In this document: piece by piece, positions 23,701 through 45,182 of the stretch
Position numbering within the stretch: the first letter of the stretch is position 1
Layout: each line of letters starts with the position of its first letter
NCBI RefSeq assembly: GCF_964194025.1
Contig: NC_134472.1
Span: 52,762,001 to 52,826,000, forward strand
Reading direction: 5' to 3'
Length of the DNA: 64,000 nt
DNA from: Convolutriloba macropyga
Lineage: Eukaryota
Notes under the pieces: model-generated
What the model was told of the DNA's origin: nothing
Database searches by the model: none
Seen by the model: the letters and a program-made list of their open reading frames with translations, nothing else
Made by a program: the position numbers and the translations under genes

Positions 23701-24309
23701 TGTTGGGTTATGGACTTTCGCAAGCGGAATAAAAAGCGTTTTTAACTAAGTAAAAGAATTAATTTCTCAAAAATGAGAGAATAACAAAATGATATTTTAC
23801 AGTAGAATTTAGAGATTTACAGGAGAGATCTGATTATTAGATCAAGATGGTGATTTGAATTTGGGGATGAAAAAGGACTCAAAAATCAGCTGTATATATA
23901 CCCATTATCAGTGTGAAAAAGTCAAGATACAAAACTAATCTTAGCACCGTAATTTATAGTGGGGGTCGCAAAGGTTACCCAATATGGTTTGCTTCTGCAA
24001 ATCAGTCGCAAAGGGAACCATAAATGGAATGCATTTGCACTTTTCTAAGAATTCATTCACACTTCCGGAGATATCATCATCATTTATTACATGCTGGGAA
24101 GATTTTACATCACTTAATCTAACTCTAATAATAGTTATCTAGATTCACCAATTTGAACCGAATATTTATTCTCAGCACCATTTCTTGACGATTCATTTAT
24201 ATAATTTCTTTGATCGAAGTCATATTGCTTGTCTTTCTAATCTGGTAAGTCAAACTTTCTTTCTAATTCTCAATAAGTTTAGGACTATAGTTTGATCGAT
24301 ATTCTAACA
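23701..24309 (-). repeat. 3' LTR (609 bp)
   Basis: tgttgggtta...attctaaca; 2 substitutions relative to the 5' LTR. Confidence 0.98.
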
Positions 24310-24318
24310 CCCCCACTC
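24310..24318 (-). other. Polypurine tract
   Basis: Minus strand GAGTGGGGG abuts the 3' LTR and overlaps the pol stop codon. Confidence 0.85.
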
Positions 24319-27300
24319 AGACTTGAGCTGATTGCGTAGAGTCTGCTCCCATCAAAACTGCTCTGAATGTTTCCACTTTCGAAACGGGTAAGGACTTTGT
24401 GAAGATGTCCGCTGCCATTTTGTCTGTAGGGACGTAATGAATTAAAATAGTCCCATCCTCAGTCTTGTCATGAATGAAGTGAAACTTTGTTTCGATGTGC
24501 TTGCTCCTTTTGTGCATGACTGGGTTTTGGCAGAGTCTGATACAACTTTGGTTGTCTTCTCCGATTGCTATTGGACGTTTCTGTTGGATGCCAAAATCCT
24601 CTAGAAATTGTTTCAGGTAGAGTGCTTCCTGAACTGCTGCTGCCATGCCCTGATATTCTGCTTCTGATGAAGAAAGAGCAACTGTGGCCTGCTTCTTGAC
24701 ACCCCAGCTGAGTGCTGCGCCACGTCCGTTGAGCTTGAAGTAATAGCCCGTTGTTGATTTTCTGTCGTTCATGTCTCCAGACTAGTCTGCATCACTTTCC
24801 CCCACTAAATCATAACTAGCCTCTTTTGTGTAAGTAAGTTTTAAACCTTTTGAACCTTGAAGATATCGCAGAAGTCGTTTTCCGCACATCCAGTGTTGAT
24901 TGGTAGGTGCATTCATGTGTCTGGACAGAATGTTGACTGTGAACATGATGTCTGGCCTCGTCTGTTTGGCCAGATACAGAAGTGATCCAACCAAGCTTCT
25001 GTAGATCCTCTGGTCCACTTCTTCGTCTCCGTTCTGTGCTGTCTGAAGTTTCAAATTCAAATCAGCTGGAGTTCTTGAGGGTTTGCATTGATCCATTTGA
25101 AACCGCTCAAGCATTGTGTCTATGTAGCGTTCTTAGTCGACTGTGACTTTGCCCTCTTCTGGTCGGATTCTTAGACCCAGAAACCAGTGTAGTCTCCCTC
25201 TGTCTTCCATGTGAAAGGTTGCTTCTAGTGCCTTCTTGACATCAGAGACCACTGTCATACTTCTTGATGCTACTATGATGTCGTCAACCCAGACCAAGAT
25301 GAAGGTGTGATCCTCTGCCTCTGAACTTGCGACCAAGCAGTGATCGTTCCTGCTTCTGGTGAACCCCTGTCTCAGTAGGAAGTTTGCCAGCTCTTTGTAC
25401 CAGTTGTTAGCAGCCTGTTTCAAACCATAAATTGATTTATTCAGTCGACATACTTACTTCTCTCCATCTGATCCTCGTTTTACAAACTCCTGTGGCTGTT
25501 TCAGATACACTTTTTCCTCGATTGGTGAGTGCAGGAAAGCTGTTTTGACATCGAATTGGTGCATCACATGGCCCTGCTTCGCTGATAGCTGAAGTAGAAT
25601 CCTGAATGTCTCTGGCTTACAGGTAGGCGCAAAAGCCTCAAAGTAGTCCAGTCCTTCCGCTTGTTTGAAGCCTTTGGCCACATAGCGCGCTTTGTATTTG
25701 TCCACTTGACCACTGGGTCCCAATTTCACTTTGTAGACCCATTTGCCCGGTATGACGTCCCTATCTGTGGGTGGTCTCACTAGGTTCCAAGTCTCGTTGT
25801 CTTGGAGTGCCTTGACCTCGTCCTTCATTGCCCGGTGCCACTGGTCCCAATCGTCACCTTGCTTGGCTTCGTAGACTGTTTTGGGTTCCACATAGTCGCC
25901 CTCAGTCACAGCAAGATGGGTCCTGACTTCTCCAAAAAATTGTGAGAATAACTGTGAGAAGTCTTCTGTGTCACTGTCTTCCAGTGACTCTGAGTCTCTG
26001 TGACTCCCTCTTGTTGCAGTAGATCCTTCATCTAGTGCTGTTTCTCCAACATCCGAGGCCTCTGGTCTCAGTATTGTTTCTTGAGTATTCACGCTCCCTG
26101 CGTCATGCCACTCCTCCTTTATTTCAGTAGATGTGTCCTGTCGTTCTCTGTTGTCATCATCTTGATGACCATCATCTGGGTGCCAGATTCCCAGTTCCGA
26201 CCCATCATCTAGTAGGTCAGCCGTTTTTGTTGTTGTCAGGGATTGAGCCCACTTCAGACTCCTTGATGATCACATCTCGAACTGCCATCACCTTGCGTGT
26301 GTTGGGTATGTACACCAGGTATCCGTTTTCTCCTTCAGTGTAACCCACAAACTTTCCTTCCAGTGCCTTGGGTTCAAGTTTGCTGACTTCTCTGTCCCTC
26401 TTCCTCACTCATGAAGACTGTGCAACCACAAATAGATAATTTACTAATTGAAAGCTTAGGTTTTATACCTCTCATCAGCTCTGCTGGGCATTTTTCTTCT
26501 CCTCGTCTCACAACCAAGTTTCTGATCCTTGCTGCGTGAAGAATTGCTGCTCTCACATCATCTTGGGAAGTCCTGAGTCAATGAGCAAACATCTTGCCAT
26601 CTCCAGCAGTGTCCTGTTGCACCTCTCAGCTAAGCCATTCTGTTGTGGCGTCTCTGGTATGGTCTTTTCCTGTAGAATGCCTGCATCTAAGCAGTACGTC
26701 TTAACTGCTCTGAGAGAAATTCCTTCGCATTGTCTTGCCTCAGCTTCTTGGGCGTCCCCACACTGAGAACAAATTTCTTCAGGCTGGCCAGTGCTTCACT
26801 CTTTACCTTAAGCAAGTCCACAAACAAAAACTTCGTGTACTGGTCTGCAAACACTATGCAGAACCGGAACCCTGACAGTGATTCTACTCTGAAAGGGCCC
26901 ATCACGTCTGTGAACACCCTCTCCAGCTTCTCTTCTGCTTGGGTCTCTGCCACTCTTGGTACTGGAGTCTTTGTGATCTTGGCCAATGCACACACATTGC
27001 ATACATCATCGAGTTCCCCCACTGTCTCTGGTGCATTTCTGACTACATCCGCTTGATTCAAATGACCCAACCGTCTGTGCCACTTCCTTGCACTGTCAAG
27101 TTTCACGCTGTTGGAACTCATCTTGAATTCTAGAACGCTGCAGGGTAAGTAAAACAAATTATTTTCTTGTGTTAGTTTTACCCGAGTTCCCTTCTGGAGT
27201 TTCATGCAGCTGTTTCCTCTCTCGAAAGTGAAGCTATGTCCCCACTCCGTGCATCTTGAGACTGATAGGAGGTTTGAAGAATAGTCCGGCACACACAGAA

Positions 27301-28429
27301 CATTTTTGAGTTCGCATTGGAATTCCCCTTTGTTTGAGGGTATGCTGATCCTCACACAGCCTTTGCCCACCACTCTGGAAGCCTCTCCGTTGGGATTTCT
27401 GACCACTGATTGAATGGGCACAAAGTCCAGGAACGCATCGATGTTCGTCACTATGTGATCTGTACAACCACTGTCCACTAGCATGCCTGCTGTCTTCCAC
27501 TGGGTCAGTGCTGCCCAGCATTCCTCGTCTGGTGTAGCCAATGTTGGACCCATTGCCACTGACTCATGTTTGCCTCCATCTCTTTGTCTCTTGCATGCCC
27601 TGTCTAGGTGACCCTTCTCACCACACTTGCTGCATTGTGCTGTCTCCTTCTTCCTGCGGTCCTTGGCAAAGTGTCCAGGGATCCCACACACAAAGCAGTT
27701 TCCTTTCTTGGGTCCCTTCTTGAAGTCACGCTTCACAGCCAGTGCCACTGAACCACTTTGTCCCTTGTGTCTCTGCACCGTGCTCTCATGAAAGTTCTGC
27801 AGCCTTTTCCTCAACTCTGTGAAGTTCGTTGCCGGGTTGAAGCTTTCCTGTATAACAAAACTTTCATACCTCATTTGCAGACCATTGAGGACCAAGGCGT
27901 TGAAGAGGGTCTCTGAGACTGCTTCCCCTGCTTCTTGTAGCCTTGTGAGCAACTCCTGTCCTCTGATGAAGAAGCTGTCCAAATCCTCGGAATCCTCGAG
28001 CTGCAGTCGAGCAAGCTGTGCCACTAAAGTCACCACTGTCGGTGTCTCCACACTCTGAAATCTCTCTTGCAAAAGCTTCCAAGCCTTTGCTCCATCTCCA
28101 ATGCCATCATCTCCCACACAGTCATGTCTCATCAGCATGAGGGTTGTTGCATCTAGAGTCAGTGCCAGATGGCACCACACATTGTTCCGTTTCTCCTTGA
28201 TGTCTGCAACTTCCTTCTCATATGCATCCTTCAGCACCTTGTGGTTCTTCTTCTCATCATTGGTTGCCCCATTGGCCAGTGGCGCAGGCTCATTGGGTTG
28301 CTCCTCTGTCCCCAGTAGTGATTTGTAGAGTCCCTTCGTCTGCATCATCGCCACAAATCTTGTGCTCCAGATTGGAAAGTCCTGTGCCTTTCCTGTGTAG
28401 GTCAGCAGCTTCACTGTCTGTTGATCCAT
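24317..28429 (-). pseudogene. Copia gag-pol polyprotein, disrupted
   Basis: ATG at 28429. Zinc knuckles CFVCGIPGHFAKDR (last Cys lost) and CSKCGEKGHLDRAC; protease LVDSGCTDH; GAG-pre-integrase WHRRLGH...CNVC; integrase D-D-E (FTDVMGP, RQDNAKEF, NGLAER); RT (YKARYVAKGF, DVKTAFL, WVDD); RNase H (SSEAEY, EDNQS, ADIFTK). Nonsense codons at ~25454, 25133 and 24782; frameshifts near 26702, 26555, 26409 and ~26200. Confidence 0.95.
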
Positions 28430-28545
28430 TGAAGTTTGAGCAGGCCAAACAGTTGTGAAAAGAAAAGGTACTAAGCAGAAAAGGATTATGACTGTCAACA
28501 ACAAATTAGTTTTGTTTTGGAAATTAATTTTATGACTTAGAAAAT

Positions 28546-28561
28546 TGCTGGGCCCATAAAC
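28546..28561 (-). other. Primer-binding site for the 5' half of initiator tRNA-Met
   Basis: Minus strand GTTTATGGGCCCAGCA directly after the 5' LTR. It is complementary to the tRNAiMet anticodon-arm sequence TGCTGGGCCCATAACC with 1 mismatch, as in Drosophila copia-type half-tRNA priming. Confidence 0.85.
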
Positions 28562-29170
28562 TGTTGGGTTATGGACTTTCGCAAGCGGAATAAAAAGCGT
28601 TTTTAACTAAGTAAAAGAATTAATTTCTCAAAAATGAGAGAATAACAAAATGATATTTTACAGTAGAATTTAGAGATTTACAGGAGAGATCTGATTATTA
28701 GATCAAGATGGTGATTTGAATTTGGGGATGAAAAAGGACTCAAAAATCAGCTGTATATATACCCATTATCAGTGTGAAAAAGTCAAGATACAAAACTAAT
28801 CTTAGCACCGTAATTTATAGTGGGGGTCGCAAAGGTTACCCAATATGGTTTGCTTCTGCAAATCAGTCGCAAAGGGAACCATAAATGGAATGCATTTGCA
28901 CTTTTCTAAGAATTCATTCACACTTCCGGAGATATCATCATCATTTATTACATGCTGGGAAGATTTTACATCACTTAATCTAACTCTAATAATAGTTATC
29001 TAGATTCACCAATTTGAACCGAATATTTATTCTCAGCACCATTTCTTGACGATTCATTTATATAATTTCTTTGATCGAAGTCATATTGCTTGTCTTTCTA
29101 ATCTGGTAAGTCAAACTTTCTTTCTAATTCTCACTAAGTTTAAGACTATAGTTTGATCGATATTCTAACA
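28562..29170 (-). repeat. 5' LTR (609 bp)
   Basis: Direct repeat of 23701-24309, adjacent to the PBS. Confidence 0.98.
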
Positions 29171-29700: not shown

Positions 29701-32617
29701 CCGCTCTCCGTCAATCTGTCTTGTCACAAATGTCTCTTTCTCTTTCAATAATGGAGCGAATGCTACGATTCTTAGGAAGTTAGTCCTAGTTTAAATAAAC
29801 CCAATTAATTTCTCCCCCATTTTTGCTTCTTATTTACCACCACTGAGGTTGAATTTGTATTTGTATGTTCATTTTGAACAGAAAACATGAATAAACACAG
29901 TGAAAAGCATTATAAAAGGTATACTGAATTCAAATAATGTATTTTATATTCCGTTGGATATTTGTTTGTTTTTCTTATATTTATGCGCTTGTTTTTCTTT
30001 TCCATGCCCTTTAGCCATAGTTCATCAAAGACAAAATAACTTCCCCCTTAGGAAAAGTTGGTCTCGCGTCTCGTTCTCAATCTTTCTACCTTTTTGAGTT
30101 CATTAAATAGGCCGTCTTTTGATTAAGTCGATTTCAGCTATTTACAAAATGCTAGGTCTCAACTGTTTAATCCAATATCAAAAGCATTAACAAATGTAAA
30201 CACCCTTGGCGAAAATTACCCGGTCAATTTTGCATTTTTGATTTTATGGTAAACAGTATTTCAAACGGAATCGTGTAAAAATGTTGATACTTATCAAATT
30301 AGAACCACGTTTCATTTTGAAAACAGCCAGTGATTACTGTTTTTATTTCTGTTTTAGGGATCATAATTAGGGTAAAATATGTCCTTGGTTGTTTTGAAAT
30401 TTTGAAGTTTAAATTGTGAAAGAAATGAAGTGACGCGTGAAACCTTCTGTTTATAACTAAAGCAGGTCTATTCATATACCATTGTTGACTATATTTCCCT
30501 ATTCCATTCAAGTTATGCATTACACAAATTTGCATGAACAAACTCGCTCAATTGTCTTTTTTTTCAGCTCAAAGCAAAGAACTGAAAAAAGAAGTGAAAA
30601 GATTACTTGTTCACCAGATAGGCAATTGTTTGTTCATAACCTTAACCCCAAGAGACTAAAAAGCCCAACTTTTCCTAAATTGCCCGCTGTCTTTTCCTTG
30701 AATTATCCATTATAACAATTCCCCCTCCCCGTAAATTCTTAGCAAGGAAAATGAGTGACAACTTTAAGCCTAACCAGTCGAAAATTGGCTTGTCTCTCTA
30801 TAGCTCCATCAAGCCATTTAAGTTATATTACATCATTTGAATTTCTGTATACAGTTAAAATGTCCAAGCCGGAAATTGGATTAATTTGAAGCTTAATTGC
30901 TTTTGGGGAAAATCGTTTTTATCATAACTTGGGCTATAATTTTTCCGCATCAAAAGTGGCTTTTCTCAGCCTATCTTGAAACTTCAAAGCGCCATTTCTG
31001 CGTAAGCTAGAAAGCGTGACTGTTTAATGAAGCCATTTCAAATCGATTTACCTTTTTGCTTTCCTTTTTGGTAACCTTTCTTCCTTTTCCGCTTTTTCCA
31101 TATCTTTTACAATCAACCAACAGGCTAGACTGATTATAGCCATTGAACTTGCAACATCTGAAGATTTCCGAGTCGTTGCTTTGAAACAGCCTTTTATGGT
31201 GCTTCCTTTAATGTTTAAAAGTTACTCCAAAATTATTTCTTTTTATCGCGACATTTGGTTTAAAGTTATACATCCATCTAAATAAATTGATCAATTACAG
31301 GCGTTGAAAAGTTTCATGAACACGGATTGAAATCTCTAACAGTGATCTTTAAAATATCTTGTCTAAACTTGTCTTAATAAAAAAAGTAAGAGCATAAAAT
31401 GAGTTGTTGCATAAATAAAGATATAAATTTAATATAATTTGGACTTTTTTCTGTTTTGGATAGATGTTCGAAAATTATTCTTTGCAGTGGGCGTGAAATG
31501 ATTCGTTGTGAAATCCATGAATGATTTGTTCTCGGACAGACTAGACGTCATTTGTCAGGAAATTACCACATTAATCAACTTTCTTAACTTATACTATCAA
31601 AATTGCGGAGCTCCATAATTTAGGCGCAGAACCGCAATATATCCCACCAAAATACTCGTTTCTACTATCAACCGGGCTTTTTTGCTGGCTCGCTTTCACT
31701 ACAGTTTACAACCCTCTCAGAAATTCATTAATCACTTTGGCAACGCAACATTTTTTTTTCAAAATTTAATAACAAAAAGTTGAAAACAATAAGAGATATT
31801 TCAAAGAAAATATATTCTATTGAAGATGGGTGAATCCTTTATTGCAATTATTTAATATGACTTGATATGGACTATTGATGAGGAGAGGACAAAGGCCTGA
31901 AATAACATCCTAAACTAACATCTAAAAATGCAAAAAAGATTATGTGAACAAATTTTTCTGTTTGTTTCAAAGTGCTTGCTTTTTTAAACACAAAATTAAA
32001 TGAACGCTCAGTTAAAGAAAAAACTTTTTAAAGACGGTTTGAATCCGCATCTTAATGATATTTATCGTTTGACTTTTTTGATAGCTTATTTTGAGTGCAA
32101 AAGAAAATGAAAACTTTGAATCATTGATTGCAAGATTGTAAATGGCACCAGTATCGTATGGCATAGAGTGCATTTCGTAGAGGTTTTGCCCTGATCGAAA
32201 ACGTTGGTCGACCTGGTAGTTAAGAAAATAGACAAGCGAGAATTTTTTATAGAGAAAATTATTGTTTCAACCATTGCCATCGAAAATGCGAGTTTTTGAA
32301 GAGAAAATTTCAGAATCATTGCATGATCAATTTTGTTGACAAAATTGTCAAACATTTGTATTGTTGATTTGTAGAAAAAAAGCAATGTATCAATCTAATA
32401 TTTTCCCAAAACCGTTTTCATGTCCCTTCAGTACTATCACAAGATCTTCTGAAAGTAATTATTCTGTATCCAATTATTTGAATTATAGTAGTTCTGCAAA
32501 GTATTAATTACTTTAGCCACCAAATTTCTTGATTTGATTTTCTATATTTTACGCTTATTGTATGTGCTCAAGATCTTTTTTAAAGAAGAAGATTAGTTTG
32601 GTGTCTGTAGAGCGTCT

Positions 32618-34756
32618 GATCAATTGATTGGACAATTAAAACATAGAGCAGTTACCTTTGGCTCATGAAAAACAGTAAAACCTGAACAAAAATTGACAAT
32701 ATGGGCAGCATTTTTAATCTTAAGGCAAACTTAAATAATCAAAGTTTAAGGTTTATCAAAGCTTTTATAGGTAGCAACCTTCTGTATGGAGCAATTTAAC
32801 GTTATTTTTTTTGTTTTGATCAATTGATTGGACAACCTTTGGCTCATGAAAAACAGTAAAACCTGAATAAAAATTGACAATATGGACAGCATTTTTAATC
32901 TTAAGGCAAACATAAATAATCAAAGTTTAACGTTTATCAAAGCTTTTATAGGTAGCAATCTTCTGTATGGAGCAATTTAACCTTATTTTTTTGTTTTGAT
33001 CAATTGATTGGACAATTAAACTATAGATCAGTTACCTTCGGCTCATGAAAAACAGTATAACCTGAAAAAAAATTGACAAAATGGACAGCATTTTTAATCT
33101 TAAGGCAAACATATATAATCAAAGTTTAACGTTTATCAAAGCTTTTATAGGTAGCAATCTTCTGTATGGAGCAATTTAACGTTATTTTTTTGTTTTGATC
33201 AATTGATTGGACAATTAAATATAGAGCAGTTACCTTTGGCTCATGAAAAACAGTCAAACCTGAACAAAAATTGACAATATGGACAGCATTTTTAATCTTA
33301 AGGCAAACTTAAATAATCAAAGTTTAAGGTTTATCAAAGCTTTTATAGGTAGCAACCTTCCGTATGGAGCAATTTAACGTTATTTTTTTTTGTTTTCATC
33401 AATTGATTGGACAATTAAACTATAGAGCAGTTACCTTTGGCTCATGAAAACAGTAAAACCTGAATATAAATTGACAATATGGAAAGCATTTTTAATTTTA
33501 AGGCAAACATATATAATCAAAGTTTAACGTTTATCAAAGCTTTTATAGGTAGCAACCTTCCCTATGGAGCAATTTAACGTTATTTTTTTTGTTTTCATCA
33601 ATTGATTGGACAATTATACTATAGAGCAGTTACCTTTGGCTAATGAAAACAGTAAAACCTGAATATAAATTGACAATATGGAAAGCATTTTTAATCTTAA
33701 GGCAAACATATTTAATCAAAGTTTAACGTTTATCAAAGCTTTTATAGGTAGCAATCTTCTTTATGGACCAATTTAACGTTATTTTTTTGTTTTGATCAAT
33801 TGATTGGACAATTAAACTATAGAGCAGTTACCTTTGGCTCATGAAAAACAGTAAAACCTGAAAAAAAATTGACAATATGGACAGCATTTTTAGTCTTAAG
33901 GCAAACATAAATAATCAAAGTTTAACGTTTATCAAAGCTTTTACAGGTAGCAATCTTCTGTATGGAGCAATTTAACCTTATTTTTTTGTTTTGATCAATT
34001 GATTGGACAATTAAACTATAGATCAGTTACCTTCGGCTCATGAAAAACAGTATAACCTGAAAAAAAATTGACAAAATGGACAGCATTTTTAATCTTAAGG
34101 CAAACATAAATAATCAAAGTTTAACGTTTATCAAAGCTTTTATAGGTAGCAATCTTCTGTATGGAGCAATTTAACGTTATTTTTTTTTGTTTTGATCAAT
34201 TGATTGGACAACTTTTGGCTCATGAAAAACAGTAAAACCTGAATAAAAATTGACAATATGGACAGCATTTTTAATCTTAAGGCAAACATATATAATCAAA
34301 GTTTAACGTTTATCAAAGCTTTTATAGGTAGCAATCTTCTGTATGGAGCAATTTAACGTTATTTTTTTGTTTTGATCAATTGATTGGACAATTAAATATA
34401 GAGCAGTTACCTTTGGCTCATGAAAAACAGTAAAACCTGAAAAAAAAATTGACAGTATGGACAGGATTTTTAATCTTAAGGCAAACATAAATAATCAAAG
34501 TTTAACGTTTATCAAAGCTTTTATAGGTAGCAATCTTCTGTATGGAGCAATTTAACGTTATTTTTTTTGTTTTGATCAATTGATTGGACAACCTTTGGCT
34601 CATGAAAAACAGTAAAACCTGAATAAAAATTGACAATATGGACAGCATTTTTAATCTTAAGGCAAACATAAATAATCAAAGTTTAACGTTTATCAAAGCT
34701 TTTATAGGTAGCAATCTTCTGTATGGAGCAATTTAACGTTATTTTTTTGTTTTGAT
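32618..34756. repeat. Satellite array, 11 units of ~200 bp or 180 bp
   Basis: Unit starts (g/c)atcaattgattggacaa at 32618, 32818, 32998, 33197, 33397, 33596, 33794, 33993, 34194, 34374 and 34574; array ends ~34756. Confidence 0.98.
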
Positions 34757-37563
34757 GCAACATGCAAGCAAGTAAAACATAGTCTGAAGTTTGCCTTCAT
34801 GTAATATTAGTTCATGCAACGTGAGTATCACGTTCGTCTGCTGGCCGAATACACTAGGAGGAAAAAGTCTTATAATTCAAGAGTATATTGCGTCTGAGTC
34901 TCAACCGTCTTGCGTCAAAGAGAGTGAATCATCTATGTAGGCAGACAAAAGAACATAGCATAACCTTCGCTATAGCAGTTAATCATTACAAGGTCATAGT
35001 AGTTTGTAGCAGACAATGAACTAAAGACCTTTTACAATCATCGGGTACAAAAACACAAACGTCCGTCAAAGCGATTATCAAATACCTTATTGTGTTTGAA
35101 ATACGTGTACCACAAAATGCTAGTCAATGTTTCTTACTGTAGCAGAAACGGATAAAGAAGTAACTAAAGATTAATCTGGATTTTTTTAATGTGTTCGATG
35201 AAACAAACTATCATGAAATTGTTGTTGGTAAATTCTGTACCGGAAACGTAAATAACAGCGTGGCACTTTTTCCAACTATCATTAGTTGAAGTCTTCCTTC
35301 GTTCAGAAAATATATTTGGGCGATAATAAGACAAGTTTGTGTGTTTGCATTTTTGTTCCTGTGTTTCAAAATTGAAAAAAAACTTTTGGGAAAATTTACA
35401 TTTTAAGGCAGGAATTTGATTGAAAAAAAGGCAGGGATCTATTCCGTTTTGCCCCTTGATGTTTATTACCCCTCTTCATAAATTTTGATTTGCTATTAAG
35501 AACAATAATTTTTAAACTGCCGCACGGGCTCCTGGTATGCATTGTTTTCATTGCCTAAATAATCTCCAAACAGAATAGATGCAAAAATATTTCCAATCAC
35601 TAAATTTTGGATCCAATATATCACCTGTGCCCTTTTTGAATGCCACTCGGCAAACTATGTGTCATTATGTAGCCTTTCTTTTGTCTGAAAAAAAGCGTTT
35701 GCACTTGCTGTTAGTATTGCTTGCTAGGAACTCACAGGAGAATAGATGAAAGATTTCGAAGTGTTTGCTGCTCTTACTCAATACAGTCAAGCATGAAAAT
35801 CTTTCGAAGAGCAGTTTTACATTGAAGTATTGTCATGATCATGGTGAAACACCAAGTTAGAGAATATCGATCTATTCTGGAATCTTTGCAAGAAGCAGCT
35901 TGCTTTTTGGTACCTAGTAGAGAATTTCAAAATTTCATTCTTGCTTTTCAAAATTTTATTTGTTATACATTATTGAGAACACGAGATGTGAACGGAAGCC
36001 TTTGTTTCTGACCAGCTAAAATCACTCTAGGCAAAACAATGGACCCTTGTTCATGGCCATGCAAAAAATCTAGCTCTCTGTCTCTGATTTGTCAATGAAT
36101 TGCGCTCTTAGTTTCTATTTAAGAATTGACCCCCCCCCCCTTGACAATGGGAGACAATAGGGGGGAAATTTTTCCAAAATAACAATCACTCGTTATTGTT
36201 GTTAATACTGAGTCAGTTGCAAACGAAATCTTTAAAAAGGGAGAATAAACTACAGACAAATTCTCACAGCGGGAATGACTTCTGAGTAAAAATTTGGTGC
36301 TAGAGTTGTTCCAGAGCATCTATATTGTTTTTAGAAAATGGAGATTAGGAGTCTTCAACAATTGTGGGAATTTTTGGAGTATTTTTTTGGCTTGAAAGAA
36401 AGCTGGCCTTTAATTGCCTAATTTTTGTTTACCTCAAGGTCACTTGGTCATACCAGGAGTCTGCCTGCTGTTGATTTACATTTTTCCTTTGTCAAGTGTT
36501 CTCTACCACAATTTTGAACAGTGCTCTCACGATAGGAAAGATTTCAGTCATGTCTCGGCAAACCAATCTATTTCAAAGTTCCGTTCTTTTTTGATAATTG
36601 TGCGAATAAGACATTCCGCCTTGTTTTCAAAATACGTTCTTCTCAGTCAGCAAAAAAGGTGTGGCTTTTGTAAAAAAAAGATTCGTCTTATATGTGACAA
36701 CATTGACCAGAATAGAGGCCATAATTGTCAGTTAATTCATAAACTAAAGCGACCGGTAAAGCTATTTATTCAGATAGAAGTTGGCTTGAGGCAAAATTTA
36801 AATCAAAATTATGACAAAAGGGCTCTATTATTTCAAGTGTTATTACAACTGCGAACTAAAGATTTTTTCAATTACACAATTCGCTTTGTTATTACAGTCT
36901 TCACGGCAAAGTGTTACAAAAAGTGTACAATTTTGTATGTTTTACTTTTGTATGTTATTAAACTGTTTTAACTCAAAAGAGCTTTCTTACCAATTTTTCT
37001 CACCTGGTGGTAAAACGATACTCTTTTGGACATCAAATTTCCCTTAGGTGGGTTTTTGAAGCTGAAATTGAAACATTAAATCAGACAATTTGTCGTCTTT
37101 TTTTATTAAATTTTGCCTCCCTTAAGAGTGAAAATATTTGACAGGTTATTTTTACTTTCAATTATTGAAAATTTATTATCCATTATTTCGTATATGCCTT
37201 TACAGTTTTCTATCTTGGCATTTAAGTGAATATATCGAGTACAATAAGATTAAGTCGTTATGATAGTGAAAAAGTGTTCATATTTAATGAAAGATTTCAA
37301 CAATTTTATAGCATTTCAACAACCCTATTCGCCAAATCGACTCTTGCCCTTTATTTACACGCAGGCGGGCGCTGAGTTCATGTCATTTGCAGCCATTTCA
37401 ACCAATTATCACCTCTAGTTGCCAGCTATAACTCAGTAATAACTTATGTAATAACCAATTGGTTTTGAAGAGTGGTTAATATTGTTGCCGATCAGTGATG
37501 GTAGTTCAGTATGAGAAAAAGTGTACACCATTCAAGGTGTTGGAATTATGCAGATGTACTTTT

Positions 37564-38417: not shown

Positions 38418-40490
38418 CCGGGACAACTGCGAATGGTTATCTTGTAAGATCTCACAAGGTTCTGACGGAATCTTAGAAGATAAACATTCGTCTTACAAGA
38501 TCTTATAAAACAACCATTTGCCTTGAAAGACTTTTACAAAATAACCGTTCTTCTAAAAGAATTGTACAAGATAATTGTTTGTCTTTAAAGAACTTGACAA
38601 GATAACTGTTCGTTTTAAAAAAAATCCTAGAAATCCGTTTATCTTAAATCCCAAAGATCTGTGTTTGAAGCATTGAAGTCTACTAAACATCCAAAATATT
38701 CCTGAATAAACTCAAGTGCGCTCGCTGTTTTTTGTCAGGTTTCTTGGAGGGCAAGAAACAATTAGTGGTATTGGAAAATCAATTTTTTAAAAGCAAAACG
38801 GCCTTCTCATGACTGTCCATGAGTTCAGCGTTGAATGATTTTGGTTTCCGCCACTTCTTGTCCTGTTTTGCCAAGCTACTTCGAGGGTATTGAGGCCCAT
38901 TTCAGATTCAAAGAAAACATATATATTTAAAACACCATTTTGTTGAAAATGGTAATATAGATTTCATGTATGATGACAAATATATGAAAAAAAATAATCG
39001 ATTGAAGAAAATGATCGGTAAAAATCAGAGCAAAAATTGGTCACAAGAAGTGTTTATAGCATGAATTGGTTTGGTTGTGTTCCAGAAGTCAGAGAGAGAC
39101 CAGGAGTGTTTGATGAAAAACAAAAACGATCAGAGATCATATCGCTCTTCTTTCAAATATTATATAAAAGTTTTATATGCATTTTTGATTACATGCTTTA
39201 TTTTTGTTCTTTAGCGAGAACTGAAAGCTTTTCATGTTTTTCTTAGATCAATAAGAAGCAAACTATAAATATTTTTAATTGTTATTACCGACAGCGGCAA
39301 AGCTGTGAAAGAGCTCACCACAAATTTTAGCAAATTTTGTCCAAGAAGTGCCAATTAGTTTTTTTGTAACACAGCTAAGTTTACTATATATCCAATTTAT
39401 TCCTCAAAGAACTCAATTCCGCTCATTTTTTTCTATTTCAATGAGAAACTCTCTTGAAAGGGTAAAAAAAAACAGTTTATGGTATTGGAAATTCAAATTT
39501 TGGAGCAAAACGGCCTTCTCATGACTGTCCATGAGTTCAGCGTTGAATGATTTTGGTTTCCGCCACTTCTTGTCCTGTTTTGCCATGCTACTTCGAGGGT
39601 ATTGAGGCCCATTTCAGATTCAAAGAAAACATATATATTTAAAACACCATTTTGTTGAAAATGGTAATATAGATTTCATGTATGATGACAAATATATGAA
39701 AAAAAATAATCGATTGAAGAAATTGATCGGCAAAAATCAGAGCAAAAATTGGTCACAAGAAGTGTTTATAGCATGAATTGGTTTGTTTGTGTTCTGGAAG
39801 TCAGAGAGAGACCAGGAGTTTTTGATGAAAAACAAAAACGATCAGAGATCATATCGCTCTTCTTTCAAACATTATATAAAAATTTTATATGCATTTTTGA
39901 TTACATGCTTTATTTTTGTTCTTTAGCAAGAACTGAAAGCTTTTCATGTTTTTCTTAGTTCAATAGGAAGCAAGCTATTAATATTTTTAATTGTTATTAC
40001 CGACAGCGGCAAAGCTGTGAAAGAGCTCACCACAAATTTTAGCAAATTTTGTCCAAGAAGTGCTAATTAGTTTTTTTTGTAACACAGCTAAGTTTACTAT
40101 ATATCCAATTTATTGCTCAAAGAACTCAATTCCGCTCATTTTTTTCTATTTCAATGAGTAACTCTCTTGAAAGGGTAAAAAAACAGTTTATGGTATTGGA
40201 AATTCAAATTTTGGAGCAAAATGGACTGTCCATATGACCTTCTCAGGACTGTCCATATGTTTAGTGACTAATGATTTTGGTTTCCATCACTTTTTGGGCC
40301 TGCGTTCCTTGCTAATCTCAGCTTATTGGTGTCCCTTTTAGATGTTATTAAACTGTAATTTTTCATTGTTTTAATTTTGCAAGTATTTCACAAGATAATT
40401 TGTCGTCGTACAATATCTTATAAGTTAAAATTTTTTTGCAAGATTCTTGTAAGACCTTACAAGATAAAAACCCAATCTCGCCCCCCGTGG
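38418..40490. mobile_element. Older TIR element related to 14514-15390
   Basis: ttatcttgtaagatctcacaag near the left end vs inverted ttatcttgtaaggtcttacaag near the right end; degenerate ~31-bp caagata subterminal repeats at both ends. Exact termini and TSD unclear. Confidence 0.5.
38767..40290. repeat. Tandem duplication, 712-bp unit, ~2.1 copies
   Basis: tggtattggaaa at 38767, 39480 and 40191; paired ORFs at 39037 and 39749. Confidence 0.95.
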
Positions 40491-42095
40491 TTATCACTTT
40501 GATGACATATTTATCTAATCTACGTTTCGAACTCAAAAAACGTCGGCGAATTTGAAATTTTTTCCCTGTAGAATTTTGTATTTTTATCGTTATAAGGCTT
40601 CTAGCTGGGGACTGGCTAGCGCCCAAAACACTATCAAGCTTGAAAGGTTCTTCGAAGAAAAGTGAGTCCGTCTGACAATTAAGTATAAACTATTGTCCCC
40701 TCTGCTCTCTCAACGCTGTATATAAAAGATATTTGATGCGCGCAATAATTAATTTCTTTTCCAAGTAATGGAAATAATAATTCACTGAAATGTAGTTATT
40801 AAAACAACCAATTATATATCGGTTTTTTGCACCAGTGAATTGAAGCTAAGGGTTATCCCCAGAATAAGTAATTACGAAGTAGAGAATTAATGAACACAAT
40901 AAAATTTTCTCCTCTAATTCAAAATTAAGAATCATAAACAACTTAAAACAGTTGGAAGAATCCCGATTCCACTAAGTCAAGGTACTTTAAGCTAGTCAGA
41001 AAGATCGATTAACCGTTTTTAAACACTCTTTTTAACCTAAGAAAGTTGAACTCGCGTGTCAACTTCGTCTCGCAACTATGACTAACTTGTTTGACGAACA
41101 AATGCTTTTCAGATTAGCAAATCTCTCTCTGAGCGTTTTTATTTTGCCTAAGGGTACTCAACCTTATCAGTTTTTTATCAGCAAAACGTAGTGTCGTTTC
41201 TTATAGAACATTCTGACCTAACGTCTAAGTGTTATAGGGGGCGTGTAAGGTCAGTCACAAGATGCCACCTATCTTATGTGAATGTTTGTTCGAGATGACC
41301 GGAGTTGCGTGTTTAACTCGGTTTGATAATTTCAGAATAAGGCACAATCCATGTTTCCTGCTGAGCATTATGTGTGCGAAATTTTGCACGTTTGCTTTTT
41401 TCCGCCCTAACTAACGGATACGCATCCAATTTAAACTATGATACCTTTGTTTCCCATTTAGGCTGGAGTAGTGTTCCGTTTTAAATAAAACTTTAACCAT
41501 TTCCTTAAAGTCATCAAAAAAAGGAAAAAGAAATCTTAGCTCTTTGTGTCCATTATTCCCTTGTAGAATAATTTCAGTGCTAATACTTTGGGATCGACAG
41601 ATAATTTATCTCAACTTTCCACACTGAACGAGGCCTTGGTAAAATGTTTTGACTCTAGAAAAAGTGTCGTTTCTTTCAAAGGAGTATAAGAAATTCGCCT
41701 TTCATTTATTTTCTTTGTTTTATTTTAAAGGCCAAAAGAACGGTTTGTGGTACCGTAAAAAGCCCGTTGTTTTTTTCAATGTGTAAGGAATTGGCCTAGG
41801 AGTGATCAGTTAAAATTTCATGGTGATCGGACTTGAGGAAGTACGGTTTTCAAGACTTGCGGGGGTGGTGGTGAAATTCTAGACGCTTAGTTTGAAGCAA
41901 TTGGGAACCCTGAAGCCGTACCAGAGAGTAGCAGATCGATATTTCATGCTCTGATAACTCAGTAAGGAAATAGTGTGCACACCCTTTCTTGTTTGCTCAA
42001 TGAACCTATGCGAATATAAGAAAACTAGCAAGTCACCAACTAGCAAATTCATTAAACCTTAATTCCTACTAGTTTTCATTTACCTACTAACTTAG

Positions 42096-43034
42096 AGCGC
42101 CAATGGATTTCTAGTTATACAGTCTATTCTCAAATTTCATCGTCGTGGAACATTTCCACAAGATGTCAGTTTTAATCGACAGAAAAGGCACAATTTTAAA
42201 CAATTATGCAGTCGGTTTTGCAAACCAAAACTAATTCTTATTAATAAAAAGACTGGACTTAAAGTGTTGCATTCCAGGAATGCAAAAATTATCATACAAA
42301 AATTACATCAGAACCACAAGCATATTAAAGCAGTTAAGCTCGAACGGCTTGTTAAACAATCTTACGATGTCCAGGGAGCCCAGCCTATCGTTCGAGAAAT
42401 AGTACGTAGCTGTGAATATTGCAATGAAAAAATTACTCATCGCCGTTTTACCGGTCCCTTAGTTCATGCTTCTCGCCTTACACTGGATAGAATTTGTTAT
42501 GAATTAGGCCTAGTTATTAACGAAAGGCCGTTACTGGAAAACAATTGCTTCAAGAACGCCTCTTCGTTAGATCCTACTTCTTTTATCCCTAAAACCGTGG
42601 ACACTATTGATCCCAATTACAATTGCGTGTGCGCTGCACTTAGCACAATTCTGACCAGAAACCCTAATCAAGGCGGAAAAATTGAAGAGATAATTCGTTC
42701 TTTACGAAAAGAAGGCCCGGACCGCCACTTATTAAATCTGATGGGCGCTTTCCCTCTTATTAATGGCCCAGATGATCTTAATTTTGTTACAAGAACATAT
42801 TTGAGAATGCTAACCCGAACCTTTAGAACTAATATTTATATGTTTTATGAGACCGATGAGTTCGAGCAAGCCCACTGGGATTAATACACTGGAAACAAAA
42901 TGGGCCCAAATAGAGGAGGAATTTACTTAAAGGCCGGCCTGAGCGGTGGAACAATGCATTGTTTTATTGTTACTCGAGTTAAGCCACAAAAAATGAGGGG
43001 TAAGTTGTTCAATTTCGATGACATAATTTGTTAA
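42096..43034 (+). pseudogene. Ginger/GIN-like integrase N-terminus + H2C2 zinc finger fused to an OTU-like cysteine protease, no DDE core; one internal TAA
   Basis: Frame open 42096-42881: ILKFHRRGTFP...KRHNFKQLCSRF (Ginger/GIN1-type N-terminus); H-x4-H-x29-C-x2-C at 42306-42422; IDPNYNCVCAALS (Cys at 42624); LRMLTRTFRTNIYMF. After TAA 42882 the same frame gives GIYLK...MHCFIV (His at 42957) to a stop at 43034. Confidence 0.7.
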
Positions 43035-43123
43035 ACCGGACTAGCGCACACATGACAGTTATCTAAATTAAATTAAAGTTTGCTTTTACACTGCATATGG
43101 ACGCTCGATTTGCACTCTCTTCT

Positions 43124-43456
43124 TTATTTCCAATAGCGCTTGTTGCTCGGCTTTTTCGTCTTCGGACAAGTCGCTATCACAAGCTGGTTGATGCTGTTGT
43201 TCGCGTTGCTGTTGTTGTTCGCATTGCTGCTGTTGTTGATCGTTTGGTGGCTGTTGTTGCTCGCTTGATTGCTGTGGCTGCCCGTTTTGTTTCGCTGCGA
43301 GGGTCCTTTTCCCTTGTTAGACCTGCCGCTTTTTGTTCGCCTCTTTGCCTTCCTCTTGGAGTTTCGAATGTGCTCTGCCCGTGGCGTTTTACCAGCCACT
43401 GGAGGCAGTTTTATTGGGGCCTTTCTATGTCGAGCCTTTGCGATTTTGTTGTCCAT
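43124..43456 (-). CDS. Small basic protein, 110 aa, with H3-tail-like motif and Asn/Ser-rich (or frameshifted Gln-rich) low-complexity region
   Basis: ATG at 43456, open to TAA at 43124; GC-richer than the flanks; KARHRK...AGKTPR and KRKAKRRTK. Confidence 0.4.
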   Translation of the reverse strand: MDNKIAKARHRKAPIKLPPVAGKTPRAEHIRNSKRKAKRRTKSGRSNKGKGPSQRNKTGSHSNQASNNSHQTINNSSNANNNSNANNSINQLVIATCPKTKKPSNKRYWK

Positions 43457-45182
43457 AGTGCTATAATTTATTAAAACCTGACGAATAAGGATAATATGGA
43501 GCAAGGCCAATAACAGCAATTAGCTAAGTTCAGTTTTTAATGGAAAAATAAGGAAAATAAATTGATTTCCTTTCTTTGTAGTTTCCACGGGCTAAGTTTT
43601 AATGTGAATGACCTCGAGATTTTCCAACTCGAATAATCTTGGACTTATTTGCCTTGCCCCAAATCGCGCAACAATAATGTGTGCCTCTTATCAGGTGTTA
43701 TTTGCCGTGCAAAACTCCACTTTTGGTATTGTTGGTAGTTTGTGTGCTAATTCGGTCTTGTCTTTGTTAGAACAAGGTATTTGAGTCCTAAGTGCTTGTT
43801 TCATCAGCCCTAATGTTAATACGCATATTTGTATTTGAGACCTGTCAAAACTAGGACCTATTTATTTTACCCGCGAAAGTTCTGGGTGTGAAAGATAAAG
43901 TTGCGACTAACAAAGGTGTCAATAAACTACGCAAGAACTAAATTCTACATTCACCCAAAACTTTGTTTTAAGTCAATATTTTAATCACACACTTTTGCTC
44001 CTTTTTTTGTCTTCTTTCTTTTATTTCAAATTTTCTTTTATTCTTTAAATTTTTCTTAATTTTTTGTCATTTCAAAGTTCTTTTCAAACACTGCTAATTA
44101 TAATTTTTGAATCTTTGAGATAGACGATTTTCCTATATACTGATTTTGCGATAACAGCGAATAATGAGTAAAATTTTGACATTTTGTGTACTTCTGTTTT
44201 TAGGAGAGTTTACGAACCAAATTTTTGGATGCTCTTCAAAGTTGACCTTAATTTAAAACAAGATTAAACAAGAATGTTCCATTTCTTCAGCACATGAATA
44301 AAATGAAATCTTATTTTCAAATTTTTTATTCATTTTTTTGAATTTTTAATATGTTCAATATCAAAAAAAAGTTCCTGCTGTTTTAAAATTATGTAAATTT
44401 TGAAAAACTGGCTATTTTGCTGAAATCAAGAAGGAAGACGTCGACGAAACGTTTTTTCTTCGCCGCCTGCATTTATTTTTCATAGCTTAATGCTGGAGTC
44501 TATTCCCACAATATTTAACAGTATTTCAATGGTCAAATAGTTGAGAAATGTACCATTTTTCATCATTAGAGGATATATTGAACAAAAATCAGCACGTCAA
44601 AGTCGTGGGAAGGCGATTGTTTGTAGTGCGCGCGTTCCCAAAAGCGCAATTATTCTAATGTTTGTGTGTGACGCAAAAATGAACAATGGGCATTTATTTA
44701 ATGTACAGTTTCTTTAAGCGTGGTGTCAATTGTTAATGATAAAATTTGCGAAAAATAATAGAAATAGTTTTCTTCAACAAACAAGCGAAACGTCAAAATT
44801 GTTTACAGAGCATTCTATTGTGTTTAAGGTCCTGGCAAACGCGGAAAAACTGCATCTTCAAAAAGCGTTGGTAAGTTTGCTGCAATTTTGTGCTCAATTT
44901 ATTTTTCTTCCATATTCCCTCTTTAGCACGGTCTAATCAAAATTTCAGCTCAAAATTCGACGTCTTAAGTGGTTGTTGTCACGAACAACAATCCTCTTAA
45001 TACTTGTAATTAGAAACATCTGACAATAAAGTCTTTTTTCCCGTTCAAGCTTCAAAGCTTCAACCTATTTTTCATCTATTCTCTTGTCTATTTGGAGAAG
45101 TAAACGTCTATAAAAGAGGCTTTTATTTAAATCGTGTGTATGCAAATTTATTTTGATAACATCTGTTAAAATTTTAATTCAG

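Follow-up and report, generated by a model that had tools for sequence, protein, structure and literature searches.

An antisense gene in the long terminal repeats of env-bearing Ty3/Gypsy elements of Convolutriloba macropyga joins an integrase N-terminal module to a predicted OTU-fold domain

This study focused on an open reading frame within 64,000 nucleotides of contig NC_134472.1 of Convolutriloba macropyga (the whole stretch is referred to as the window). The frame is a decayed copy of a conserved accessory gene that lies, antisense to gag-pol-env, in the long terminal repeats (LTRs) of env-bearing Ty3/Gypsy elements, and intact copies of the gene are under purifying selection. The original prediction, made from the sequence alone, was of an integrase zinc finger fused directly to an OTU-like protease with the DDE catalytic core missing, representing either an internally deleted Ginger transposase or a dedicated accessory protein. 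That architecture was confirmed, while the location in an LTR and the antisense position had been missed. Of the two readings, it is almost certainly the dedicated accessory gene that is correct, as stop-free copies, purifying selection and the same DDE-less architecture in four families and in distant database proteins all indicate.

The open frame in the window spans 42096-42884 (+) and has 262 open codons. The gene itself occupies 42103-42983 (+) and is broken here, while open copies encode about 297 aa. Its first part, an integrase N-terminal extension (YPYY-like) and H2C2 zinc domain at 42103-42422 (+), was recognized by Pfam PF17921 and by structure modelling, and includes the motif H-x4-H-x29-C-x2-C with exactly the predicted spacing at 42306-42422 (+). 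The predicted OTU-fold domain at 42564-42980 (+), assigned with Foldseek, VIA-align and HHalign to Helitron OTUs, contains a Cys box (42615-42629, +) and a His box (42954-42965, +). The anticipated gap of 67 residues from the final Cys of the zinc finger to the Cys of the box was found in the frame of the window copy, as was the single in-frame TAA (42882-42884, +) with the His box beyond it; this stop codon is private to the window copy among the copies compared. The prediction had extended the feature from 42096 to 43034, and although the open frame was confirmed, the gene ends at the TAA of 42981-42983 (+). As an alternative to a spliced 5' end, the ATG at 42103 had been suggested to be off by one base; this ATG is the start codon of the family, and the window copy carries a one-base frameshift near 42119. 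The coding region therefore needs no spliced 5' end. A branch-point-like TACTAAC plus TTAG directly 5' of the start codon (42085-42095, +) is retained in the two other family-1 copies compared, and families 2a, 2b and 3 have an AG after pyrimidines shortly 5' of their ATG, whereas 2c and 4 show no clear one; TACTAAC-TTAG is a possible acceptor of a 5'-UTR intron. The damage to the window copy consists of the frameshift and the internal TAA, and its dN/dS of 1.05 against the closest copy indicates drift since insertion. Among the profile checks, Pfam Integrase_H2C2 matched the window ORF with E 7.7e-5 and 23.2 bits, which is below the cut-off of 25.5, and there was no match to rve or OTU.

Similarity of the window to other copies of the repeat runs from 40567 to 43949 with sharp edges, at 88-93% identity. 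These limits define the termini of an LTR of 3,383 bp (- strand in the sense of gag-pol) with the ends TGTAGAATTT and AAATTCTACA, which form 10-bp inverted termini. It is flanked by TTCCC on the left (40562-40566) and TTCAC on the right (43950-43954), a target-site duplication (TSD) in which four of five bases agree. A DNA search of the host's own genome (1.18 Gb) returned 138 candidates, and the 40 that were scored all matched at 90-100%. Four paired copies, with their members about 14 kb apart, show the same LTR flanking gag-pol-env on the opposite strand. Given the sharp repeat edges, the flanking TSD and the same repeat around gag-pol-env in the pairs, the repeat in the window is the solo LTR of an env-bearing Ty3/Gypsy element, with the accessory ORF lying 1.0-1.85 kb from the U3 end and antisense to gag-pol-env.

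The interior of the paired family-1 elements comprises gag (393 codons, CCHC), pol (1,429 codons) and an env-like ORF (784 codons). The order in pol is PR-RT-RH-IN, with matches to Asp_protease (92-183), RVT_1 (408-567), RNase H (631-758), H2C2 (924-981) and rve (1007-1097). In each of the three families examined, the env-like ORF has RxKR or RxRR followed by a hydrophobic stretch, plus a C-terminal hydrophobic stretch, and its match to Baculo_F (E 0.006) is under the cut-off; by these sequence features, the third ORF can be classed as a putative F-type env, as in errantivirus-like Gypsy elements. All four family-1 pairs have a perfect 5-bp TSD, a purine tract (PPT) before the other LTR, and a primer-binding site (PBS) of which 20 nt are the complement of the 3' end, CCA included, of a host tRNA-Asn gene, and the two LTRs of each pair are 99.6-100% identical. 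Across all families, the TSD was perfect in 10 of 12 checkable paired elements, the exceptions being one family-2 pair and the sole family-3 pair. A tandem array (L040-L041, G000:C2:17259000-17308000) of at least five family-1 units of 11.9 kb each, with shared LTRs, has a shorter interior than the paired elements and no rve match in pol. Two extra open frames (188 and 150 codons) lie in the gap between env and LTR of a family-1 element (L034:8026-9659, -); they have no Pfam match and were not found in the other families.

Of the 30 best DNA matches, 22 had an open frame of about 297 codons starting at ATG, a count biased to young copies, with the window copy among the eight that are broken; a stricter context pattern gave 19 of 30 open, missing three copies with an altered flank. 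Between two young family-1 subfamilies, dN/dS was 0.19 (Sd 38.5/203, Nd 28.5/688; Fisher p 3.6e-10), with 0.10 for the OTU part (p 3e-5) and 0.22 for the N-terminal part. The sum over every pairing of 15 open copies, pairs that are not independent, gave a ratio of 0.28. Close pairs gave 0.3-1.7 on few changes; several of them lay at 0.5-1.7, which is expected of drift after insertion, and they add no support for selection. A search for stop-free DDE-less copies and for dN/dS among them had been suggested at the outset, and returned both, with a ratio of about 0.2 between young subfamilies.

Protein searches of the same genome reached three more families (2, 3 and 4, the window's own being family 1), so that the DDE-less gene is now known from the 3.1-4.0-kb LTRs of at least four Gypsy families, in the same orientation and with the same PBS. 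Identity between families is 25-41% for the accessory protein, 60-69% for pol and 32-63% for env. There was no rve match in the window ORF or in 55 family members, and the structure models leave no room for a core. The concern that this junction might be unique, with all relatives keeping the DDE core, was thus not borne out, as the junction recurs in four families. Family 4 includes a gag-pol-env element and gag-only elements that keep the LTR gene open; the non-autonomous members L072, L074, L079 and L084 have a long gag-like ORF and no pol, and retain the LTR gene. Among 72 database representatives, all true matches were of 302 aa or less, and several join both domains without a core; P0071 and P0082 were repeat proteins matching by chance and were dropped. 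For three distant homologues searched against this genome, nothing close was found (best 35%, 31%, and none at 1e-25), so the gene family likely reaches other hosts; no loci for them were found in metagenome or viral contigs.

Families 2 and 3 carry a phase-2 GT-AG intron of 60-75 nt at one position between the two domains, while families 1 and 4 are without it. The GTAAG...AG intron was found in all 17 family-2 copies first fetched, and was canonical in nine of 10 further copies of families 2 and 3. Read-through of the intron was considered, because the first 17 were all of length 3n, and was rejected when further copies of 62 and 70 nt were found; the earlier uniformity reflects a selection effect of in-frame matches. 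The intron reads in the gene's own (antisense) direction and so would not be removed from genomic RNA, and judged on sequence features it offers good, though indirect, evidence that an antisense transcript exists and is spliced. Four unlabelled contig sets were compared with a family-2 LTR, and no joint at the intron occurred among 15 of 74 joints, a result that is uninformative on expression.

The model of an open family-1 copy (pLDDT 93.2, pTM 0.73) is consistent with an integrase front end joined to an OTU fold. Residues 2-108 superimpose on residues 8-100 of foamy virus integrase (Z 9.0, rmsd 2.5, 85 aligned), and the N-terminus also matches the integrases of Ty3 (Z 7.5) and MLV (6.7), from which the front end is predicted to be an N-terminal extension plus zinc domain. 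The top rows of Foldseek (best E 8.9e-4) and VIA-align were all OTU domains, led by Qalyub vOTU (Z 10.8), OTUD3 (10.7) and OTUD1 (10.7), at rmsd 3.6-4.0 over 127-132 aligned residues. A family-4 model (pLDDT 90.3) matched OTUD3 (Z 12.2, rmsd 3.2, 127 aligned) and Ty3 (8.8); the two models are not independent, as their input alignments overlap. The original prediction of a Cys-His pair agrees with the family-1 model, in which C175 opens the helix 175-185 and H286 is on the last strand, 284-295. HHalign to Helitron OTUs gave a probability of 95% and E 2.5e-8, with Cys and His in register. Among 56 divergent rows, and counting those that cover each site, Cys is kept in 29/32 and His in 20/23, and the four zinc ligands in 32/33, 24/33, 32/32 and 25/32, so that the second His and the last Cys of the zinc site are the less constant ones, which counts against the reading. 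In the ESM Atlas, the N-terminal half matched Integrase_H2C2 clusters at 0.91-0.92; the C-terminal half scored under 0.9 only, its third match being 19% OTU, a lead only. A Y/F-x-P...Y/F pattern is visible by eye in the accessory alignment, a comparison made without a Ginger1 sequence.

The call of an OTU-like protease, which stands on the predicted structures and HHalign to Helitron OTUs, was not matched by profile or sequence searches: Pfam PF02338 (OTU) hit 0/55 members at E 0.1, its 16 places in a genome-wide search did not include the accessory gene, and sequence searches of the PDB gave no OTU match. An Asp or Asn two residues past the His was seen in 0/22 rows, and the GDGNC and WGG motifs of Helitron OTUs are replaced, so that activity may be weak or aimed elsewhere. 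TYMV PRO, however, is a deubiquitinase without a third residue or oxyanion hole (PMC3744425, as described there). On the models, the intact protein is likely a deubiquitinase of OTU fold with a Cys-His dyad.

Comparison of the LTRs revealed a distinctive pattern of divergence. Two family-1 elements differ by a dS of 0.226 in the accessory gene against 0.027 in pol. Subfamilies of family 2 show accessory identities of 44-50% (exon 1) and 64-72% (exon 2), with dS from 1.4 to saturated, while their pol genes are 93-96% identical (dS 0.09-0.19). Along the LTR, identity of 92-98% drops to 64-76% over the cassette, and the putative DNA-contacting (N-terminal) half is the most variable part of the accessory protein. 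Since accessory dS is far above that of pol, old cassette alleles appear to ride on near-identical backbones; this mixing is most simply explained by recombination, and the pattern resembles that of an arms race. Contig depth over the distal half of a family-2 LTR (L068:2330-4345) is up to 100-fold above that of the cassette, which hints at many related LTRs with other cassettes, although contig depth is a poor measure.

The cassette includes a second, small basic ORF (43124-43456, -), which is in the sense of gag-pol and tail to tail with the accessory gene. It is frameshifted near 43305 in the window, and in young family-1 copies its product has 117 aa. In family 2, the neighbour ORF (L045:5961-6287, L048:6138-6473, L051:6399-6779) starts with MARTKQTRK, MARTKNTR or MARTKNTKK in three otherwise diverged variants, while host histone H3 starts with MARTKQTARK; the chance of ARTKQT after a given Met is 2e-8 by a rough composition estimate. 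The H3-like start is confined to family 2, with a faint echo in family 1 (GKAPIK) and none in families 3 and 4, and some family-2a LTRs are without the neighbour ORF. Histone H3 was not recovered from the PDB by phmmer when the opening 30 residues of the H3-like ORF served as query, and the likeness rests on comparison with the host gene.

The origin of the gene bears on the reading that it is an internally deleted Ginger1 inserted in an LTR and carried passively. As described, Ginger1 transposases carry YPYY, H2C2, DDE, GPY/F and OTU regions, introns in some families, terminal inverted repeats (TIRs) of 40-270 bp and a 4-bp TSD of CCGG or CCGT (PMC2836005). The accessory gene, with a putative YPYY-like region and H2C2 at the N-terminus, OTU at the C-terminus and an intron in some families, resembles them in order and orientation, and an ancient Ginger1-like gene minus its core would fit both the domain order and the intron. 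For the element in its present form, however, the deleted Ginger is not supported, in view of the TG...CA LTR, the 5-bp TSD, the PBS, the PPT and a pol with its own complete integrase, together with the absence of Ginger TIRs, a CCGG-type 4-bp TSD or the TIR or TSD of any nested element. It is also at odds with the purifying selection on the gene and with the recurrence of the junction in four families and distant homologues. No longer, DDE-bearing relative was found among 6,354 candidates of 530-2000 aa, which is weak evidence, and the 21 loci covered, out of 67 zf-H2C2 places listed from 4,338 candidates in the genome, included no Ginger1 donor. Passive carriage of a deleted Ginger1 is thus already largely refuted as a present-day description and is extremely improbable. 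Nor is the gene a recent duplicate of pol: against three integrases of the elements themselves, its N-terminal profile reaches no more than 4.0, -0.2 and -2.8 bits. The closest OTU sequences found were those of Helitron RepHel proteins of this genome, yet the accessory OTUs lie on one side of a long branch (16 rows, support 100/100) from eight Helitron OTUs, the only outgroup, and the tree singles out no donor.

With a deleted Ginger1 set aside, the preferred reading is of a deubiquitinase tethered by its integrase-derived front end to element DNA or chromatin, where it counters host silencing; we hold this to be evenly poised between right and wrong. The accessory gene would be transcribed from its own antisense promoter in the LTR, with the result that every LTR, including solo LTRs and those of gag-only elements, could supply the protein in trans, and the intron, being antisense to genomic RNA, would survive reverse transcription. 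The N-terminal extension domain of foamy virus integrase contacts DNA directly. In the foamy virus intasome, the N-terminal extension and zinc domain are described on the DNA-contacting inner subunits (PMC3185587), and the N-terminal module of the accessory protein may likewise bind LTR DNA or chromatin, while the OTU domain would strip ubiquitin from histones or silencing factors at the LTR. Chromatin is favoured over integrase as the target because the N-terminal half varies most while integrase is constant, in the manner described for VANC and its targets (PMC5735166). The H3-like neighbour ORF points in the same direction. Even so, the evidence does not tell chromatin from integrase or immune proteins as the target. 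More tentatively, and on balance rather doubtfully, the clade may possess an exchangeable LTR cassette made up of an intron-bearing, antisense, LTR-targeted deubiquitinase (integrase N-terminus plus an OTU of Helitron/Ginger type) and an H3-tail mimic, with old alleles swapped onto almost identical gag-pol-env backbones in a silencing arms race and solo LTRs supplying the proteins in trans.

A rather unlikely alternative to this tethered, anti-silencing deubiquitinase is that an active enzyme docks through its zinc domain on the element's own integrase or particle, and shields Gag, Pol or the pre-integration complex from ubiquitin-driven degradation. Integrase N-terminal domains do pack on catalytic cores in intasomes. 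OTU or Ulp1 domains are also fused to Ginger1 transposases and Helitron RepHel, as reported in descriptions of these elements (PMC2836005, PMC11417382), which suggests a role close to a transposition protein. The low profile scores show, however, that the accessory N-terminus is barely related to that of the element's own integrase, and a partner of a constant integrase should not vary by 50% between subfamilies with 93-96% identical pol. It is unlikely that the protein is a weak or re-aimed OTU (an endopeptidase, or acting on another ubiquitin-like tag) or a ubiquitin-binding scaffold, and mainly a DNA-binding LTR regulator like TnpA, VANC or HTLV-1 HBZ. The absent third catalytic residue and altered canonical motifs would fit, and catalytically dead transposase derivatives are described as sequence-specific regulators (10.64898/2026.08.24.746577), but Cys and His persist in about nine of 10 rows whose identity is 25-40%, constraint is strongest in the OTU part (dN/dS 0.10), and TYMV PRO works with neither third residue nor oxyanion hole (PMC3744425). 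A deubiquitinase with a general role against immunity, comparable to nairovirus vOTU and directed at signalling proteins of the host in cells entered by an env-bearing particle, would accord with the fast divergence, as in host conflict, with the F-type env-like ORF, and with the viral OTUs among the best fold matches, which also cover the linker from residue 107. It would leave the conserved integrase N-terminal module and the H3-like neighbour unexplained, the top Z-scores of viral and cellular OTUs are tied, and we consider it quite improbable. Very improbable is that the protein limits its own element by a dominant-negative effect, as an integrase fragment without the DDE core that would disrupt intasome assembly and keep copy number down: a multimerizing zinc domain is kept without the catalytic core, and solo LTRs would raise the dose with copy number, but such a protein has no need of a conserved protease dyad, is distant from the element's own integrase, and belongs to copies that are many and young (LTR pairs 99.6-100% identical).

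In position, the accessory gene is like retroviral genes located in U3 or read antisense from an LTR promoter (HIV nef, MMTV sag, HTLV-1 HBZ), and in predicted fold it is like the OTU proteases used by viruses, such as nairovirus vOTU and TYMV PRO. We know of no case in which an LTR gene combines an integrase N-terminus with an OTU domain. To our knowledge, animal LTR retrotransposons have been treated as gag-pol(-env) only, and most known anti-silencing factors of transposons come from plant DNA transposons. Unlike Ginger1 transposases of 500-800 aa, the accessory protein is about 300 aa and lacks the DDE core and GPY/F, and the gene is carried by a Gypsy LTR whose inverted ends are 10 bp long and whose TSD is 5 bp, not by an element with long TIRs and a CCGG-type 4-bp TSD (PMC2836005, as described). 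The backbone corresponds to that of the env-carrying Ty3/Gypsy 'ancient errantiviruses' in its gag-pol-env, F-type env features, LTRs, tRNA PBS and recent multicopy expansion in an animal, and differs in its LTRs of 3.1-4.0 kb holding a two-gene cassette; the words antisense, OTU, accessory and H2C2 do not occur in the main text of that study, the supplements of which may list such elements (PMC13524379). Family-wide antisense ORFs with a proposed nuclear or DNA-binding role are also found in Grande, RIRE2 and Retand TRP28 of plant Gypsy, but these are described in the gap between pol and the 3' LTR, with no integrase or OTU domain mentioned, whereas the accessory gene is inside the LTR (PMC11963269). 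Helitron OTUs (loci L085-L100) share with accessory OTUs a 'C..L.L' segment before the domain as well as the register of Cys and His, yet are described with DGNC, WGG and H-x-E motifs and a fusion to RepHel, while accessory OTUs have their own side of a long branch (PMC11417382). VANC of VANDAL and TnpA of Spm are likewise transposon-encoded accessory factors whose sister families diverge fast, and TnpA, as a regulator derived from a transposase, offers a further likeness; both belong to plant DNA transposons described without OTU, and the anti-silencing shown for them would be carried over by analogy to the accessory gene (PMC5735166, 10.64898/2026.08.24.746577). Among the properties of the accessory gene, it is only the divergence pattern that appears to fit VANC-like anti-silencing factors.

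Antisense extra ORFs in plant Gypsy elements, OTU domains in Ginger1 and Helitrons, and env-bearing Gypsy elements across animals were thus already known. The LTR cassette was not found described in the literature, nor was a retrotransposon-encoded OTU deubiquitinase, with Repbase, Dfam and subscription journals outside the scope of the search. A conserved, selected LTR gene for a probable enzyme, with an intron and with alleles far older than their backbone, provides a concrete protein and assay for the question of whether animal retroelements counter host silencing by enzymes of their own. It also presents an integrase N-terminus put to new use in the absence of the catalytic core, and, going by their open frames, solo LTRs in this clade would be protein-coding.

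Several other elements were noted. The Helitrons (L085-L091, L096-L104) have RepHel ORFs of about 2,500 aa that start with a canonical OTU domain. A small contig (L171, G000:C1921) carries an integrase that matches the accessory profile over its entire N-terminal region at 22.5 bits; the open frames of the contig are many and overlap, which suggests high GC and possibly a different organism. Within the window itself, a broken Ty1/Copia element at about 24300-28600 (-) has matches to gag, GAG-pre-integrase, rve and RVT_2, a satellite at 32600-34900 comprises about 12 copies of a 181-200-bp unit, and a tandem repeat at 38750-40350, with a unit of about 712 bp, adjoins the left end of the LTR.
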